From a virus (taxonomy: Duplodnaviria; Heunggongvirae; Uroviricota; Caudoviricetes): 37,277 nucleotides of DNA. Below are positions 13,507 through 20,004 of the stretch, one piece after another. A model generated the notes under the pieces. It had not been told where the DNA came from. It was given only the letters and a program-made list of their open reading frames with translations, and searched no databases. The position numbers and the translations under genes are program-made. The DNA lies in the IMG/VR virus record IMGVR_UViG_2711768166_000003; one strand, written 5' to 3'. The number at the start of each line of letters is the position of its first letter. Positions within the stretch are counted from its first letter, which is position 1.

Positions 13507-14502
13507 GTGACCGTGAGAGCACTACTGACGCCTGAAATTGCCCCGCGTATGGGGATCGTATTGTTCAGGCCAGGTTCAGAGCTGATGCCCCTGTTTATGC
13601 AGGGGCGTGTCCTGCTGGAGCCAGAGCCGGAACGTTATTCATCTTTCGCCAGTGGTGCCGTTCCGGCGGCATCACAACCGCTGGCGGATGATCCTGCCGT
13701 TCGGACCGTGTTCCGCAATGAGGCAGTGATCCGTCGTGCTGGTGGCGTGGAATGTCTTGAAAGCTGGTTACTTCGTGAAAAGGGCTGTCAGTGGCCTCAT
13801 TCTGACTGGCACAGCGAGAACATGACCACAATGCGGCACGCTCCGGGAGCAATTCGTCTGTGCTGGCACTGCGATAACCAGCTGCGTGACCAGTTCACGG
13901 AACGGCTGGAATCAATGGCAACGGATAACTGTGCCCGCTGGGTGTTGTCTGTCGTGCGTCGGGATCTCGGTTTTGATGACAGTCACGTTGTGACAATGCC
14001 GGAACTGTGCTGGTGGCTGGTTCGTAATGATCTGGCGGATGCCTTACCGGAAAGTGCAGCCCGTAAGGCACTGAGATTACCGAAGCCTGTTGTGCCATCT
14101 GTCACCCGGGAAAGTGACCTTGTGCCTTCGGTTCCTGCCACCAGCATCATCCAGGATAAAGCTAAAAAGGTGCTGGCGCTGAAAGTGGATCCGGAGTCGC
14201 CGGAGTCTTTTATGTTACGCCCAAAACGTCGCCGCTGGGTTAATGAAAAGTACACGCGCTGGGTTAAGACGCAGCCGTGTGCATGTTGTGGAAAGCCTGC
14301 TGATGATCCCCACCATCTGATAGGCCACGGTCAGGGGGGAATGGGTACAAAAGAGCATGATCTCTTTGTGCTGCCTTTGTGCAGAAAGCATCACGACGAG
14401 CTGCATGCGGATACCGTGGCATTTGAAGAGAAGTATGGCTCCCAGCTGGAGTTGATATTTCGTTTTATCGATCGTGCGCTGGCAATTGGTGTGTTGGCCT
14501 GA
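13507..14502 (+). CDS. DUF968-type phage protein (YdfU-like) with C-terminal Cys/His metal-binding motif
   Basis: 331 aa; C-terminal CACCGKPADDPHHLIGHGQGG ... LCRKHHDELH; GTG start. Confidence 0.65.
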   Translation: MTVRALLTPEIAPRMGIVLFRPGSELMPLFMQGRVLLEPEPERYSSFASGAVPAASQPLADDPAVRTVFRNEAVIRRAGGVECLESWLLREKGCQWPHSDWHSENMTTMRHAPGAIRLCWHCDNQLRDQFTERLESMATDNCARWVLSVVRRDLGFDDSHVVTMPELCWWLVRNDLADALPESAARKALRLPKPVVPSVTRESDLVPSVPATSIIQDKAKKVLALKVDPESPESFMLRPKRRRWVNEKYTRWVKTQPCACCGKPADDPHHLIGHGQGGMGTKEHDLFVLPLCRKHHDELHADTVAFEEKYGSQLELIFRFIDRALAIGVLA

Positions 14503-14519
14503 TTTTGTGGAGAAAGTTG

Positions 14520-14876
14520 ATGCGTGATATGTATGAAGTAATGGATCGTTGGGGAGCTTGGGCTGCTTCAGACAATAGCGGAGTGGACTGGCAGCCGATA
14601 GCGGCTGGTTTCAAGGGACTTTTACCTCATGGCAAAAAGTCACGGATTCAGTGTGATGATGACGAAGGCATCATGATAGACAGTTGTGTGGCTCGGTTGA
14701 GAAGGTATAAACCAGAGGAATATGAGCTCATCATCGCCCACTTTGTTATCGGTATCTCATTACGCACTATTGCGAAGAAGAGAAAATGCTCTGATGGCAC
14801 AATTAGGAAGGAACTGCAAACTGCAATGGGGTTTGTTGATGGCTGTTTAGCAATGTTAGCTTATAGTATGGCATAA
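14520..14876 (+). CDS. Late-gene antiterminator Q (QuuD-type)
   Basis: MRDMYEVMDRWGAWAA ... IAAGFKGL ... SRIQCDDDEG ... CSDGTIRKELQTAMGFVDG parallels the recalled QuuD-family sequence; start at ATG 14520 after a GGAGAAAG RBS. Confidence 0.85.
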   Translation: MRDMYEVMDRWGAWAASDNSGVDWQPIAAGFKGLLPHGKKSRIQCDDDEGIMIDSCVARLRRYKPEEYELIIAHFVIGISLRTIAKKRKCSDGTIRKELQTAMGFVDGCLAMLAYSMA

Positions 14877-16070
14877 AAAATAAAATAGATTTACTGCCGA
14901 TTTTTCAAAAAAGACTGGGAACTGTTTATATCCAACGTAAATAAGGCCTCCATAAAACATGGCTGATGCGAGATATTTAACAGTTCTCATCCTTTTTTTA
15001 GCTTTATCAATCAAACCTGTAATGCTACTCTTAATACTATCTGCATTATCTTTGATTTCTTTATTTTCTTCAAACTTTAAATACTTATCGAAAGCGGACT
15101 CCACTCGAGAACGTAAGTTGTCGAATGTTTCATTGAATATCTCAATAGAAATGTAATTGACTTTTTTTATCATCCAAAGTCCTGCGATAATCAATATTGC
15201 TTCGGTTGTTTCATTAGCCTTCACTAAGCCACCAGCTGCTATTAATGCACCGGGAATAGTCAATGCTTTTGTCTGATTAGATGATATGAATTCGTTAATT
15301 TTACTCGTGAACTCAAGATTTTTCTCATCGAGTTCGTTAAGAATTTTATTTACAGAAAACCTCTTTGTGTAAATCTCATATAGTTCATCATATTTTTTCC
15401 TGACGAGTTCAGTAGAGTTAAGCAAGTCAAAGAAATTGAACGTACCATTTGCTTTAAATACTTCGTTTATGGCTGAGCGTATAACGAGCTTGCGCTCGCT
15501 TTTGTGTAAATCATTGATTTTTATTGTGTCGAGAAGCTCCTTTACAATTTCATATTTAAGAGACGAGTTCGATAAGCGATTAATCTCGCTATATTGTAAA
15601 AAATGCGTGAGTTCGACTGTATAACTTTTGTCTTCATTGGTGAAAAATAAGACAGAGCAGTCACTGTTATGATGATCAGAAATTAATGAAAGGATATCTT
15701 TCCACATAAAGAAAATATGGATTTTTTCGATGCTTTCATTCTTAGAAGTAGGGAGTATTAACGGCGTTCCGATGATATAATTTTTCGGAAGAGCGTTTTG
15801 GGTGTTTACTCTAGACCAAAAAGACTCAACATTCTCATAAATTATAGCATCATCCCAAGATGAAGCTTGGCGATCTAGCCAAATTTCATTATTTTCGATG
15901 CAGGTTGTTGCCTTTTTATAACCTATAGATTGTAACAGTCTAATTATTTCAGAACTATTTACAATAACAATGCTTTCTTCAAGACTTATGACAGTGTAGT
16001 AGCCCTCAACTCTGCTTGAGGCTCCGTTAATAATCTGCGCTAATCTTGATAAGTCATCAGCAATTGTCAT
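14856..16070 (-). CDS. AT-rich cargo gene B: protein with predicted C-terminal transmembrane helices (candidate effector)
   Basis: 404 aa; hydrophobic segments ALTIPGALIAAGGLV, AILIIAGLWMI and YLASAMFYGGLIYVGY in the last third; start ATG 2 nt after the stop of gene A; 3' end overlaps the Q gene convergently by 21 bp. Confidence 0.75.
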   Translation of the reverse strand: MTIADDLSRLAQIINGASSRVEGYYTVISLEESIVIVNSSEIIRLLQSIGYKKATTCIENNEIWLDRQASSWDDAIIYENVESFWSRVNTQNALPKNYIIGTPLILPTSKNESIEKIHIFFMWKDILSLISDHHNSDCSVLFFTNEDKSYTVELTHFLQYSEINRLSNSSLKYEIVKELLDTIKINDLHKSERKLVIRSAINEVFKANGTFNFFDLLNSTELVRKKYDELYEIYTKRFSVNKILNELDEKNLEFTSKINEFISSNQTKALTIPGALIAAGGLVKANETTEAILIIAGLWMIKKVNYISIEIFNETFDNLRSRVESAFDKYLKFEENKEIKDNADSIKSSITGLIDKAKKRMRTVKYLASAMFYGGLIYVGYKQFPVFFEKSAVNLFYFLCHTIS

Positions 16071-16072
16071 TA

Positions 16073-17248
16073 TTAGCTGTCTCTATATCTTTTGAGTTCA
16101 TCATAATTTGCCTGACTCAATTTTATCACAATTTCGCATTTGTTGTCAGTGAGAATTACAGGCTTATTTGACTTTTCGTCTCCAATAGCTCCACGCATTA
16201 TTTTCAACTTAAAATTATTGTCGTTATCTGCCACTTCAATTGTAAGCGCGCTTTCAGCTGCTTTAGGAGTTGGTTCAAATTGAGGGTCAATCTGGAAACC
16301 ATTAAGATTAACAAAATCGACAAACGTTCCCTTACATTTGTGTGAATCAGTCAGGCATGAGTCAATTATTTTTGAAATATCCTCTATCTTAACGGACTTA
16401 TTTCCGTGTTTATCTTTTGATTTTTTTTCCAGTAAGGATTTAACTTCATTGTCAATAGTATCACGCAGTACACGACCGAGTGAGTTTTTACTAGCAAAAA
16501 TATCTATAGCACTGAATAATTGCTGAATGCTTCTTTTATTGTCCGAATCATGTCGGCAACCTAATGAGTCTTTGAAAAAATCGCTTTTAGATTTACCTTG
16601 CAAGAAATGTACATATGAGTCACCCTTGTTTTCTGGATAACTGGCTTCGAATAAAGTTAAATCGAACATCGCAGCCTGCCGTAAGGCATCGGTATTAATT
16701 GGATTTAATCTTGTTGGGGTCAACTTATCCGAATCAAAGTCATAGGCGCTTTGTTTATCAACCATTACGATTAGAAGTTTCCCCAAATCCTCTGGTTCGG
16801 TAGACTTATAGTGGATGAAAACAACGCTCCCCCCCTGAAGTTGGGCAACTCTCGATTCGTTATTAGCATTATGTTTAAGCTTCTCTATTATAGCTCTAGA
16901 TAAATCAATGAATTCATTATTTTTATTAATGTATTTTTTTAGGATCGTAGGAATGGATGAAGGGTTGTGATCTGAGTCTAGGAAGTTATGAAATTTGTTT
17001 TTTCGGCTAAATTTTTTCTCAATTCTGGTTATGAATTCAGATGTGACTTCATTTTTTAGATCCCAAACTTCACCTAATCGATAATCAAATGCTCTTGAAT
17101 CATTTTTTTCAAGATTTGCTGTTACAGCACCAATAGGAAAGTACGATTGTTTGCCCAGCACTACAACATGAGGCGTGGCACCGCATTTATCGCAAGCTAC
17201 AGTTGGGTCGTCAAGAACATTGCCACATTCTAAACAAGTTATATCCAT
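16073..17248 (-). CDS. AT-rich cargo gene A: N-terminal zinc ribbon plus NA37/YejK-like nucleoid-associated domain
   Basis: 391 aa; N-terminal CLECG-x12-CDKCG; central region aligns by eye to YejK (GGSVVFIHY vs GGFVLFCHY; ...DLT...FL.GK...). Family assignment is from memory, not a search. Confidence 0.7.
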   Translation of the reverse strand: MDITCLECGNVLDDPTVACDKCGATPHVVVLGKQSYFPIGAVTANLEKNDSRAFDYRLGEVWDLKNEVTSEFITRIEKKFSRKNKFHNFLDSDHNPSSIPTILKKYINKNNEFIDLSRAIIEKLKHNANNESRVAQLQGGSVVFIHYKSTEPEDLGKLLIVMVDKQSAYDFDSDKLTPTRLNPINTDALRQAAMFDLTLFEASYPENKGDSYVHFLQGKSKSDFFKDSLGCRHDSDNKRSIQQLFSAIDIFASKNSLGRVLRDTIDNEVKSLLEKKSKDKHGNKSVKIEDISKIIDSCLTDSHKCKGTFVDFVNLNGFQIDPQFEPTPKAAESALTIEVADNDNNFKLKIMRGAIGDEKSNKPVILTDNKCEIVIKLSQANYDELKRYRDS

Positions 17249-17365
17249 TATATATCCCGAATTATAAGAATGAATTTTTATGTGGCTGAAAATTCTATCA
17301 AAACACTAACGCGTACGCAAAAAATATCGTAATCTGTTAAGTGTGCTCACTTCGCCACACAGCTT

Positions 17366-17397
17366 AAACCCGCCATCGAGCGGGTTTTGTCGTTTCT
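17366..17397 (+). terminator. tR'-like rho-independent terminator upstream of the lysis cassette
   Basis: AAACCCGC-catcga-GCGGGTTT followed by TGTCGTTTC; about 145 bp upstream of the holin start. Confidence 0.6.
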
Positions 17398-17539
17398 GGG
17401 TCTGGGGATTCCTTGGTCCTAGCCTATCCCGCAGTTATCCATTGACTCGGCTTCTTTGACGTTTCCGCTTCTGATTTGCGGTACATGATGTTTCCTCAAT
17501 TTGCACCTGCTGTATCAGCGAGGTGAGAGATAACTACAA

Positions 17540-17866
17540 ATGCCTCATAACCCAAATACATGGCTGGAGTTGGTCCAGAGCTGGTGGCGTGGAGACACAC
17601 CGCTGGGCGCAGTGATTATGTCGATTGTTATGGCTGGTTTACGTATTGCCTATTTTGGCGGTGGTGGCGGCTGGAAGCGAAAAACACTCGAAATTCTACT
17701 CTGTGGCGCTCTGACGCTGACTTTTGCATCCGCTCTTGAGTATGTCGGATGGCCTAAATCACTATCTGTTGCCATTGGTGGTGGGGTGGGGCTGATCGGT
17801 GTTGATGCTATTCGTGGGGCTGCAATGAGAGTAATCGGTAACAAGTTTGGTGGCTCTAAGGAGTAA
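17540..17866 (+). CDS. Holin (lambda S-like)
   Basis: 108 aa with hydrophobic helices and a charged C-terminus; architecture parallels lambda S; immediately upstream of the endolysin gene. Confidence 0.8.
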   Translation: MPHNPNTWLELVQSWWRGDTPLGAVIMSIVMAGLRIAYFGGGGGWKRKTLEILLCGALTLTFASALEYVGWPKSLSVAIGGGVGLIGVDAIRGAAMRVIGNKFGGSKE

Positions 17867-17869
17867 TTT

Positions 17870-18346
17870 ATGCAGGTACTAAATTCCCAGCGTAAAGCTT
17901 TCCTGGATATGGTGGCATGGTCAGAGGGAACGGATAACGGGCGACAACCGACACGTAACCACGGTTATGACGTTATTGTCGGTGGAGAACTCTTCACTGA
18001 TTACTCCGATCACCCTCGCAAACTTGTCACGCTAAACCCGAAACTCAAATCAACAGCTGCAGGCCGTTATCAACTTCTTTCACGCTGGTGGGATGCTTAC
18101 CGCAAGCAGCTTGGCCTGAAAGACTTCTCTCCGAAAAGCCAGGACGCTGTGGCACTGCAACAGATTAAAGAGCGTGGCGCTTTACCGATGATTGATCGCG
18201 GTGATATTCGTCAGGCTATCGACCGTTGCAGCAATATCTGGGCTTCACTGCCGGGCGCTGGTTATGGTCAGTTCGAGCATAAGGCTGACAGCCTGATTGC
18301 AAAATTCAAAGAAGCGGGCGGAATGGTCAGAGAGATTGAGGTATGA
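17870..18346 (+). CDS. R: Endolysin R (lytic transglycosylase)
   Basis: Near-identical to lambda R as recalled: [56 protein letters not shown]... Confidence 0.95.
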
Positions 18347-18804
18347 ACAGATTAACCGCGATTATCTCCGCTCTGGTTATCTGCATCATCGTCTGTCTGT
18401 CATGGGCGGTTAATCATTACCGTGATAACGCCATTACCTACAAAGCCCAGCGCGACAAAAATGCCAGAGAACTGAAGCTGGCGAACTCGACAATTACTGA
18501 CATGCAGGTGCGCCAACGTGATGTCGCTGCGCTCGATGCAAAATACACGAAGGAGTTAGCTGATGCGAAAGCTGAAAATGATGCTCTGTGTGATGATGTT
18601 GCCGCTGGTCGTCGTCGGTTGCACATCAAAGCAGTCTGTCAGTCAGTGCGTGAAGCCACCACCGCCTCCGGCATGGATAATGCAGCCTCCCCCCGACTGG
18701 CAGACACCGCTGAACGGGATTATTTCACTCTCAGAGAGAGGCTGATCACTATGCAAAAACAACTGGAAGGAACCCAGAAGTATATTAATGAGCAGTGCAG
18801 ATAG
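18343..18804 (+). CDS. Rz: Spanin inner-membrane subunit Rz
   Basis: Near-identical to lambda Rz: [44 protein letters not shown]... Confidence 0.95.
18563..18745 (+). CDS. Rz1: Spanin outer-membrane lipoprotein Rz1 (embedded in Rz, +1 frame)
   Basis: 60 aa: lipobox LVVVGC and proline-rich [24 protein letters not shown], as in lambda Rz1; fully nested within Rz. Confidence 0.9.
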
Positions 18805-18838: not shown

Positions 18839-19129
18839 TTATGAGCAATACACCCGCGCTTCCAGCGGAGTATAAATGCCTAAAGTAATAAAACCGAGCA
18901 ATCCATTTACGAATGTTTGCTGGGTTTCTGTTTTAACAACATTTTCTGCGCCGCCACAAATTTTGGCTGCATCAACAGTTTTCTGCTGTCCAATTCCCGA
19001 AACGAAGAAATGATGGGTGATGGTTTCCTTTGGTGTTACTGCTGTCGGTTTGTTTCCAACAGTAAACGTCTGTTGAGCACATCCTGTAATAAGCATTGCC
19101 AGAGCGGCAGAAAACAACATTTTTTTCAT
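18839..19129 (-). CDS. bor: Bor lipoprotein (serum-resistance-associated)
   Basis: MKKMLFSAALAMLITGCAQQTFTV ... ETITHHFFVSGIGQQKTVDAAKICGGAENVVKTETQQTFVNGLLGFITLGIYTPLEARVYCS closely matches lambda Bor; start at the lipoprotein-signal Met, not the longer track ORF. Confidence 0.9.
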   Translation of the reverse strand: MKKMLFSAALAMLITGCAQQTFTVGNKPTAVTPKETITHHFFVSGIGQQKTVDAAKICGGAENVVKTETQQTFVNGLLGFITLGIYTPLEARVYCS

Positions 19130-19653
19130 CTTATTATCCTGCATTGTTAAAAACGGCAGAATCCTATGTGACAACAATTAAACGATAGTTAAATGGATTG
19201 ATGAAAATTAAAACTATATAGGTGTACGGTCAGACTATTGGAGGTAGTCAGGATTTGAATGTCAGTCTGTTGTCGGCATTCTGGCAATGCAATTTGGATA
19301 AAGCGGGGATTAAAAAGATAGAAGCGAGCCGGTCAGGTAGAAATGAATCAGGCTCAAAGTGAAGCGGAAAAGGTCTGTGGCACAAACTGATGCTGCCATA
19401 ATTACAGCCTGATGACTTGTGGAATGAAACATGTTGAACTTCCTTAATTGATGTGATTCGAGTGAGGAAGGCATTCTGTCCCTCTATAGTGTCCATTAAT
19501 TCAAACGGGAAATTTGTCTCATGCGTGAGACAAGTCTCTCCATTAGTGAGTTGTATTGATTGCGACTCTTCAAAGAATCCATTACTGCGTTGATGAAAAA
19601 GGTTTACTACGAATGAAGGCAGCTATTTCGCTGGTTTCTTCATTGGAGTACAT

Positions 19654-20004
19654 ATGCCCCCACGAACCCCAAAAGCCTGCCGTGTTCGCGGCTGCCGCTC
19701 TACAACCACGGACCCTTCAGGCTACTGCGAAAGCCACAAAAGCGAAGGCTGGAAGCAATACAAACCTGGACAATCCCGTCATCAGCGCGGCTACGGTTCG
19801 AAGTGGGACAGTATCCGCGCGCGTGTCCTGAAGCGTGACAAAGGCCTGTGTCAGTTATGTCTGCGTGCTGGTGTGGTGCGTGAGGCGAAGACCGTTGACC
19901 ACATCATCCCTAAATCGCATGGCGGCACTGATGCCGACTGTAATCTGCAGAGTCTGTGCTGGCCGTGTCATAAGGCGAAGACGGCCCGTGAACGGTTGAA
20001 GTGA
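19654..20004 (+). CDS. HNH endonuclease (packaging-associated)
   Basis: 116 aa; HNH motif DHIIPKSHGGTDADCNLQSLCWPCHKAKT; directly upstream of the small terminase gene, as in HK97-like cos phages. Confidence 0.9.
   Translation: MPPRTPKACRVRGCRSTTTDPSGYCESHKSEGWKQYKPGQSRHQRGYGSKWDSIRARVLKRDKGLCQLCLRAGVVREAKTVDHIIPKSHGGTDADCNLQSLCWPCHKAKTARERLK

Follow-up and report, generated by a model that had tools for sequence, protein, structure and literature searches.

Where does a lambdoid prophage keep its late promoter when the space behind its antiterminator gene is filled by other genes, and how can a prophage express defence genes in the lysogen that are harmless to the phage after induction? The latter is an open question, and both are raised by a locus in the viral record IMGVR_UViG_2711768166_000003, a stretch of 37,277 nucleotides (hereafter the window) that is an Escherichia coli lambdoid prophage. 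Here the gene for the antiterminator Q (14520-14876, plus strand) is followed by two inverted cargo genes, predicted to encode a DS-1 anti-phage defence system, and then by the lysis genes. As an earlier note on this DNA had it, the first cargo gene starts at 17248 (open reading frame (ORF) 16073-17248, minus strand), leaving an intergenic space of 17249-17539 in front of the holin gene. The note had reasoned that the space available to the late promoter and Q-utilization (qut) site, arranged back to back with the cargo promoter, is 17249-17365 unless they overlap the 5′ end of the cargo gene. We consider it likely that Q controls the late genes of this prophage through a cassette at 17300-17397 and that the leftward cargo promoter overlaps the candidate Q site within it. 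Comparison with phages SfII and Stx2a_1447, with the pR′ promoter of VT2-Sakai and with a conserved TAnnnT motif narrows the interval to 17300-17365, and the overlap appears tighter than the note supposed, with the best cargo −35 lying inside the conserved block.

The block is delimited by sharp changes in homology. When 17249-17539 was compared with phage genomes by BLAST, matches started only at 17300, with identities from there on of 91.7% to SfII, 86% to SfIV and about 74% to PA-2, 2G7b and many lambda-like phages. In pairwise comparisons with SfII and Stx2a_1447, homology stops inside the 3′ end of Q (14830-14847) and restarts at exactly 17300, and between these points each compared phage has different minus-strand genes. 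The block (~90 bp) was present in 78 of the 87 loci first examined, and the prophage DLP12 carries it 110 nt 5′ of essD. What follows it differs widely: the holin gene in the window; in Stx2a_1447, a methylase gene with tRNAs and stx2; and in Klebsiella phage P7641, a long untranslated region. The block is thus a portable unit. In VT2-Sakai it aligns with the annotated features ‘putative late promoter’, ‘putative Q-utilization’ and ‘terminator’, which lie right after Q in that prophage. A 32-bp core and a 16-bp element, both described below, occur once each in the window, at 17307-17367, the element as an exact single copy and the core with three substitutions.

The comparative analysis covered four Q subtypes with 80 viral loci each: W, the subtype of the window; D, that of DLP12/2G7b (44-46% identical to W); S, that of 933W/Sakai (46%); and F, that of SfIV/mEp390 (55-57%). 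With the pR′-tR′ region of 933W and VT2-Sakai, the window shares a palindrome, an A-tract, a TAnnnT −10 element, a TAAGAGTGGTTAC core and a GC-rich hairpin with T-tract, all at equal spacing. In Stx phages of strain Sakai, the PR′ start and its 258-nt transcript are known from differential RNA sequencing (dRNA-seq) and Term-seq (PMC7547250); with the 3′ end of this transcript placed in the U-tract of the second Sakai terminator, its 5′ end falls 5-9 nt after the hexamer TATCAT. The window hexamer TAATCT (17330-17335, plus strand) aligns with TATCAT, and the late start is therefore predicted at ~17341-17343 on the plus strand. A weak −35 region, CTAACG (17306-17311, plus strand; 3/6 matches, 18-nt spacer), aligns with the TTTACG annotated as −35 in VT2-Sakai. 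Across the four subtypes, T-A-n-n-n-T was kept in 99 of 100 distinct sequences that include more than 12 hexamer variants; fixed outer bases around variable inner ones are characteristic of a −10 element. Directly downstream lies the conserved core GTTAAGAGTGGTTACTTCGCCACACAGCTTAA (17336-17367, plus strand), which comprises the discriminator and a conserved initial transcribed region of 25 nt and is presumably where Q loads and polymerase pauses; it is common to all four subtypes, with 31-32 of its 32 positions identical among W, D and F. We thus predict a σ70 promoter, pR′, upstream of the late genes. The earlier note had seen no convincing σ70 pair, and a generic σ70 scan likewise found no plus-strand pair in 17249-17365 and no enrichment in the region (12 sites versus 10.8 expected).

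Two other promoter assignments were considered and rejected. An alternative −10, TATCGT at 17325-17330, would have a phage-21-like spacing to TAAG, but it is unconserved in D, S, F and several W loci. A σE promoter, prompted by the RpoE control reported for DLP12 in PMC7918800, had no match under the criteria used in either the window or DLP12; the window thus differs from DLP12 as described there in having no σE-like motif that we could find.

Downstream of pR′, the scan found a hairpin with a T-tract where the note had placed a tR′-like terminator, at 17366-17397, and this is the only strong terminator-like site it found on the plus strand. The hairpin (17366-17387) has a stem of eight pairs, five of them G-C (AAACCCGC/GCGGGTTT), with a loop of 6 nt, and its T-rich tail, TGTCGTTTCT, runs to 17397. 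The predicted terminator ends ~56 nt after the predicted late start and 142 nt before the holin ATG (17540). Under strict criteria a hairpin and T-tract were present in 102 of 129 distinct leaders, comprising 57 different hairpin sequences, most of which start at +23 to +28; the predicted terminator structure is kept while its sequence drifts. The remaining leader of the lysis operon (17398-17539, plus strand) is 92% identical to SfII up to S, the holin gene, and contains the Shine-Dalgarno region GAGGTGAGAG at 17520-17529. A reading of the hairpin as lambda tR′ or as a tandem lambda terminator was rejected, as lambda itself showed no similarity to the window’s intergenic region by BLAST or pairwise comparison.

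Upstream of the −10, the four subtypes differ in a way that tracks their Q proteins. The 16-bp element TAACGCGTACGCAAAA (17307-17322, about −35 to −20) contains the palindrome GCGTACGC at 17311-17318 and is invariant in 48 of 55 distinct W sequences. The W palindrome GCGTACGC was found in 74/74 loci, the D palindrome ACGTACGT in 72/72, the S palindrome ACGATCGT in 80/80 and the F palindrome GCGGTCCGC in 73/77, the other four being one-base variants. The four Q subtypes therefore pair one-to-one with four palindromes located just 5′ of the −10 in 299 of the 303 loci counted. Because the palindrome is subtype-specific, the neighbouring core is shared, and the position is that of the Q-binding element (QBE) of phage 21, we take TAACGCGTACGCAAAA as a candidate Q-binding element.

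The same element also appears to serve transcription in the other direction. On the minus strand the invariant block reads TTTTTGCGTACGCGTTAG, which includes the hexamer TTGCGT (17320-17315), a predicted −35 that is invariant in all W loci and overlaps the palindrome by 4 bp. At a 17-nt spacer, on the cassette side, the minus strand reads TAGAAT (17297-17292), a predicted −10 that would place the cargo start at ~17285-17287 and give the cargo mRNA a 5′ untranslated region of 17249-17287. We asked how often such a hexamer recurs by anchoring W loci on the palindrome and scoring as −10-like any hexamer with A at position 2, T at position 6 and at least 4/6 matches. Among 22 cassette clusters, 13 had a −10-like hexamer at the exact offset and 5 more had one shifted by 1 nt (18/22), against a background of 3.2% per position (binomial P = 1.5e-14). 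Beyond this hexamer the cassette sequences are unrelated, and a Shine-Dalgarno sequence and start codon are reached within 28-65 nt, a distance too short in many cassettes to accommodate a further promoter. The cargo-less sequences of the S subtype (Sakai) and of Stx2d_112808, read at this position, lack the leftward −10. Most likely, then, the cargo promoter borrows its −35 from the conserved block. In F-subtype loci (SfIV/mEp390; L172-L251), minus-strand −10-like hexamers peak at offset 42 and not 27, in 55% of contexts, which suggests either another cargo-promoter geometry or one cassette dominating the sample.

The cargo promoter could instead be separate, contained in the cassette-specific 51 bp (17249-17299) and free of overlap or interaction with the late promoter and Q site, in which case the locus would be an ordinary member of its family. 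Minus-strand TATAAT-like hexamers are indeed present, as the note had pointed out: besides TAGAAT there is a perfect TATAAT at 17265-17260, and the scan listed TTGATA-16-AAAAAT (17301..17274) with 9/12 matches, whereas the favoured leftward −35 matches at 3/6. Neither competitor, however, is conserved in position across cassettes, while the hexamer at 17297-17292 is. The TATAAT at 17265 would leave a 5-nt leader lacking a ribosome-binding site, the TTGATA at 17301-17296 still abuts the conserved block, and many cassettes have only 28-45 nt between the fixed −10 and the ATG. We regard an independent cargo promoter as rather unlikely.

A second alternative concerns the palindrome, which could be an operator for another regulator or mere promoter sequence, its match to the Q subtype being linkage. 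The D and S palindromes do contain the −35 TTTACG, the phage 21 QBE is a direct repeat with no palindrome, and, as we found no cargo shared between Q subtypes that would serve as a natural swap test, the association lacks a test by natural recombination. Against this, the association is perfect over the 303 loci when the one-base variants are counted with their subtype, whereas subtypes share or exchange the neighbouring core and terminator. The S subtype, although it has no cargo, retains the palindrome, the position of the palindrome is that of the phage 21 QBE, and the helix-turn-helix region of Q is most alike in D and S, the two subtypes that share the half-site TTTACG. Linkage thus seems to us an unlikely account of the match, and we retain TAACGCGTACGCAAAA as the candidate Q-binding element.

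Several observations weigh against the reading of 17300-17397 as a Q-dependent cassette with an overlapping cargo promoter. The W-subtype pR′ has a −10 with only 3/6 matches and no convincing −35, and the leftward −35 matches the consensus only at TTG (3/6) and competes with the other minus-strand candidates given above (TTGATA/AAAAAT at 17301..17274 and TATAAT at 17265-17260). The start site for this prophage is placed by homology transfer, and the coordinates in PMC7547250 refer to an older record version, so that the placement is good only to a few bases. In the core, which is near-invariant elsewhere, the window carries three substitutions, at 17342, 17346 and 17348 (AAGAGTGGTTAC to AAGTGTGCTCAC). 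Neither AAGTGT (17339-17344) nor CACTTC (17348-17353), the candidates for a σ-dependent pause element in the initial transcribed region, fits the TAAGCT of phage 21 (+2 to +7) well in position or key bases, and we found no clear element of this kind. Unlike the direct repeat of the phage 21 QBE, the candidate Q site is an inverted repeat, and its match to Q could be linkage, with no cargo common to W and F contexts. Finally, the homologous first hairpin of Sakai is read through at least partly, the mapped transcript ending at a second terminator 258 nt downstream, and the window has no second terminator, which makes 17366-17397 a terminator of uncertain efficiency.

The Sakai and window regions differ here in that Sakai has a second terminator and the StxS region and the window has neither; we found no second terminator before S and no StxS homology in the window. 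The first hairpin after PR′ in the Sakai Stx2 prophage (locus L088, 673-690) looks strong and is undiscussed in the StxS paper (PMC7547250). Because the mapped transcript ends at the second terminator, this hairpin would be leaky; otherwise, RNAs of ~50 nt escaped detection. In the window, the three core substitutions raise complementarity to the Shine-Dalgarno region of S (17519-17529), but pairing of the leader with it (−20.1 kcal/mol for the predicted duplex) was unconvincing, ranking only in the top 1.3% of windows, and we set it aside.

The Sakai work also suggests a different purpose for the promoter and terminator, which might mainly encode a ~55-nt regulatory RNA analogous to StxS, beyond a by-product of Q control. 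The PR′ transcript of Stx phages is processed into StxS, a small RNA that binds Hfq (PMC7547250), and the leader in our locus is conserved far beyond the needs of a spacer. StxS, however, is the 3′ 74 nt before the second terminator, and that Sakai region (690-905) has no homologue in the window; an Rfam search of 17200-17600 returned chance-level matches only. A small RNA would also be compatible with Q control, and as the main function of the cassette we judge it improbable.

A late promoter directly behind Q (about 14880-15000), or early transcripts running through Q, either one antisense across the whole cargo, was the outcome the earlier note had named as contradicting its proposal, and we give it almost no credence: no terminator separates Q from the window cargo, whose last ORF overlaps Q by 21 nt, so early transcripts could enter antisense, but the scan gave no plus-strand promoter-like pair at 14877-15000, a search of the window found no copy of the conserved elements near Q, the sequence after Q is cassette-specific with a hairpin terminator in most cassettes, and in none of 74 W loci does the conserved block come closer to the Q stop than 656 bp (maximum 3783 bp).

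With a control cassette at 17300-17397 and a cargo promoter reaching into it, the locus would work as follows. In the absence of Q, transcripts from pR′ would end at 17397, whereas a polymerase onto which Q has loaded at the promoter would read into S, R, Rz and the morphogenetic genes, as expected from the Q family. The DS-1 cargo would be driven by the leftward promoter, whose −35 overlaps the Q-site candidate. The predicted leftward (~17285-17287) and rightward (~17342) starts are ~56 bp apart, and the two promoters would therefore interdigitate. Given the size of the footprint of RNA polymerase, two polymerases probably cannot occupy both promoters together, and a Q protein bound to the palindrome would lie over the cargo −35. 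It is thus plausible, as a hypothesis, that cargo expression is coupled to late activation.

Beyond this, we tentatively offer a further possibility, which we hold to be doubtful: that the gap between Q and pR′ is a plug-in slot for defence genes with a built-in off switch, the palindrome acting as one operator for both directions. Q at the palindrome would load onto the pR′ polymerase and at the same time cover the leftward −35 TTGCGT, and, given its fold resembling σ region 4, Q might even stand in for the missing −35 of pR′. Lysogens would then express any cassette in the slot, and the onset of late-gene transcription would silence it, sparing the induced phage its own defence system. A late promoter interlocked with the cargo promoter, with a Q site over the cargo −35, would offer a concrete and testable mechanism for defence-gene control. 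The arrangement recalls tetR/tetA of Tn10, in which divergent promoters overlap, share a palindromic operator and start a few tens of bp apart. It differs from Tn10 in that the presumed binder in the window is an antiterminator acting on paused polymerase and not a repressor, and repression of the leftward promoter is only inferred. The four palindromes also supply candidates for the site bound by Q in the 933W family, a medically relevant group in which Shiga toxin is expressed from this promoter.

The Q gene itself places the window within this family. Its product, 118 amino acids long from the ATG (a TTG at 14505 is a possible alternative start), belongs to the W subtype of the Q21/933W family and matches PF06530 over profile positions 1-115 of 118 in a profile search (E = 2.7e-47), with a distant match to the solved phage 21 Q protein in the PDB (E = 1e-3). 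It is 92% identical to the Q of Stx2a_1447 and 46% identical to that of Sakai/933W, a member of the same Pfam family. In 933W and Sakai the cassette lies 18 nt after the Q stop (80/80), in contrast to the window, where it is 2.4 kb away behind the inverted cargo; the Sakai palindrome ACGATCGT replaces the window’s GCGTACGC, and the −35 TTTACG of Sakai has no recognisable counterpart in the window.

Phage 21 provides the best-described relative of the proposed arrangement. Its Q belongs to the same family, PF06530, and its QBE lies between the −35 and −10, as does the window candidate. In phage 21 the pause element is at +2 to +8 and the terminator ends at +50, compared with ~+56 in the window, and the distance from −35 to terminator end is 85 bp, so that the compactness of the window region is normal for this Q family. 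In the Q21 paper, positions −40 to −1 plus a pause element served as a sufficient loading template. The two phages nevertheless share no DNA homology, and they differ in several respects: the QBE of phage 21 consists of the directly repeated ATTGAGCA AATGAGCA, where the window element is an inverted repeat; the phage 21 promoter has the consensus −35 TTGACA and is followed by an evident pause element, TAAGCT, neither of which is clearly present in the window; and the phage 21 cassette directly follows Q, unlike that of the window. What is unusual in the window is therefore not compactness, but a conserved and always inverted cargo slot together with a cargo promoter lying, as predicted, over the presumed Q site.

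The pR′-qut-tR′ region of lambda follows the same logic, with a constitutive promoter, a Q site in the promoter, an early pause and a terminator that Q overcomes; the terminated transcript, 6S RNA, is 194 nt long. The Q of lambda belongs to a family unrelated to that of the window, and the lambda cassette directly follows Q.

The window’s architecture, Q followed by inverted cargo, the homologous block and the holin gene, has its counterpart in DLP12 and PA-2, where Q (quuD) is followed by an inverted porin gene (nmpC/lc), the block and essD. The inverted-cargo layout is thus already known from these two, and we found no account of its generality in the literature searched. Work cited in PMC7918800 describes the DLP12 lysis operon as controlled by its Q-type antiterminator. 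DLP12 and PA-2 differ from the window subtype in having a single kind of cargo, a porin gene, in 72/72 loci, compared with at least 22 cassettes in W. In PA-2 the porin start is ~400 nt from the block, with CRP sites annotated in between, and the porin promoter need not overlap the block.

In the window, the inverted cargo fills 2423 bp between the Q stop (14876) and the block (17300), and it is AT-rich, with a GC content of ~0.29-0.40 compared with ~0.5 in the flanks. The first gene (391 amino acids) encodes a YejK/NA37-like nucleoid-associated domain, matching PF04245 (E = 1.2e-23) and the NCBIfam model NF053868, DS1_1_antiphage, at 451.4 bits (cut-off 330). The product of the second gene (14856-16070, minus strand; 404 amino acids; GC content ~0.31-0.36), whose last 21 nt overlap the 3′ end of Q, matches NF053869, DS1_2_antiphage, at 374.9 bits (cut-off 315). 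By these profile matches the cargo is a two-gene DS-1 anti-phage defence system. DS-1 comes from the DefensePredictor study, in which the YejK nucleoid-associated domain was validated in defence (PMC13092281). PADLOC 2023, which has no DS-1 model, gave no match to the cargo proteins.

The DS-1 system is one of many occupants of this position. In 74 W loci the distance from the Q stop to the core ranges from 656 to 3783 bp, without one case of adjacency, and in complete E. coli genomes there was no pair of Q 3′ end and block within 770 nt. Clustering of the W gaps gave 22 to 30 unrelated groups, according to the threshold, and hence at least 22 cassettes; their GC content is 0.30-0.43, and almost all of their ORFs lie on the minus strand. 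Representatives matched Kiwa (KwaB), PDC-M53, an NsnA/PD-T4-2-like protein, PDC-S42 and PDC-S60, and most matched nothing; with DS-1 included, about a third of W cassettes match known or candidate defence systems. The other subtypes differ in their gaps: the block is 18 nt after the Q stop in 80/80 S loci, a porin gene fills the gap (~1.67 kb) in 72/72 D loci, and in F the gap ranges from 41 to 2760 bp. The locus behind the W-type Q is thus a rich hotspot, and because of their position in the slot its unmatched proteins are candidates for uncharacterised defence systems. Among these, the largest proteins of 12 cassettes (loci L017, L024, L004, L023, L019, L065, L083, L039, L052, L063, L068 and L072) had no PADLOC match, and those of the first six had no NCBIfam match either. 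Literature searches for a described defence hotspot between Q and pR′ found none, which is no proof of absence.

Cassette exchange seems to involve the end of Q as well. The last 8-12 residues of Q, after GF[IV][DE]G, vary with the cargo cassette, and since phage homology breaks inside the 3′ end of Q, cassettes appear to be exchanged together with the Q tail. The second DS-1 gene and Q are convergent over their 21-nt overlap with no terminator between them, and most other cassettes have an apparently bidirectional hairpin right after the Q stop. Cargo transcripts in the window would accordingly run antisense into Q, which is reminiscent of lambda paQ. As regards the two marks of a moron, an own promoter and an own terminator, the predicted cargo promoter lies partly inside the block and no terminator follows the window cargo.

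The locus is not private to this prophage. The surrounding 3.5 kb are 100% identical in APEC O2-211 and other strains, an O103:H2 strain being among the carriers of the prophage, and most of this region is present in 99 of 5426 complete genomes. A pattern scan of one genome per species gave a single match, in Pectobacterium, and says little on host range. This locus, in Pectobacterium jejuense (L334, 4380-4560), combines a palindrome and −10 of W type with TATTCT at the offset fixed for the leftward −10; immediately to the left of these elements are two minus-strand ORFs, of 414 and 381 amino acids. Its downstream core is more diverged, and no plus-strand ORF of at least 90 amino acids and of Q size is listed upstream of the two minus-strand ORFs.

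The genes around the locus are of common lambdoid type. The lysis genes S (holin), R (endolysin) and Rz, the first late genes in the ORF list, occupy 17540-18804 on the plus strand; S matches PF05106 (E = 5.7e-25), and SfII carries equal lysis-gene annotation. Directly 5′ of Q is a DUF968/HNH-like gene (13507-14502), a synteny kept in SfII, Stx2a_1447, mEp390 and Stx2d_112808. After Rz, a bor-like lipoprotein gene lies on the minus strand (18839-19177), and an HNH endonuclease ORF (19654-20004) is found just before the small terminase gene, both being common lambdoid features.

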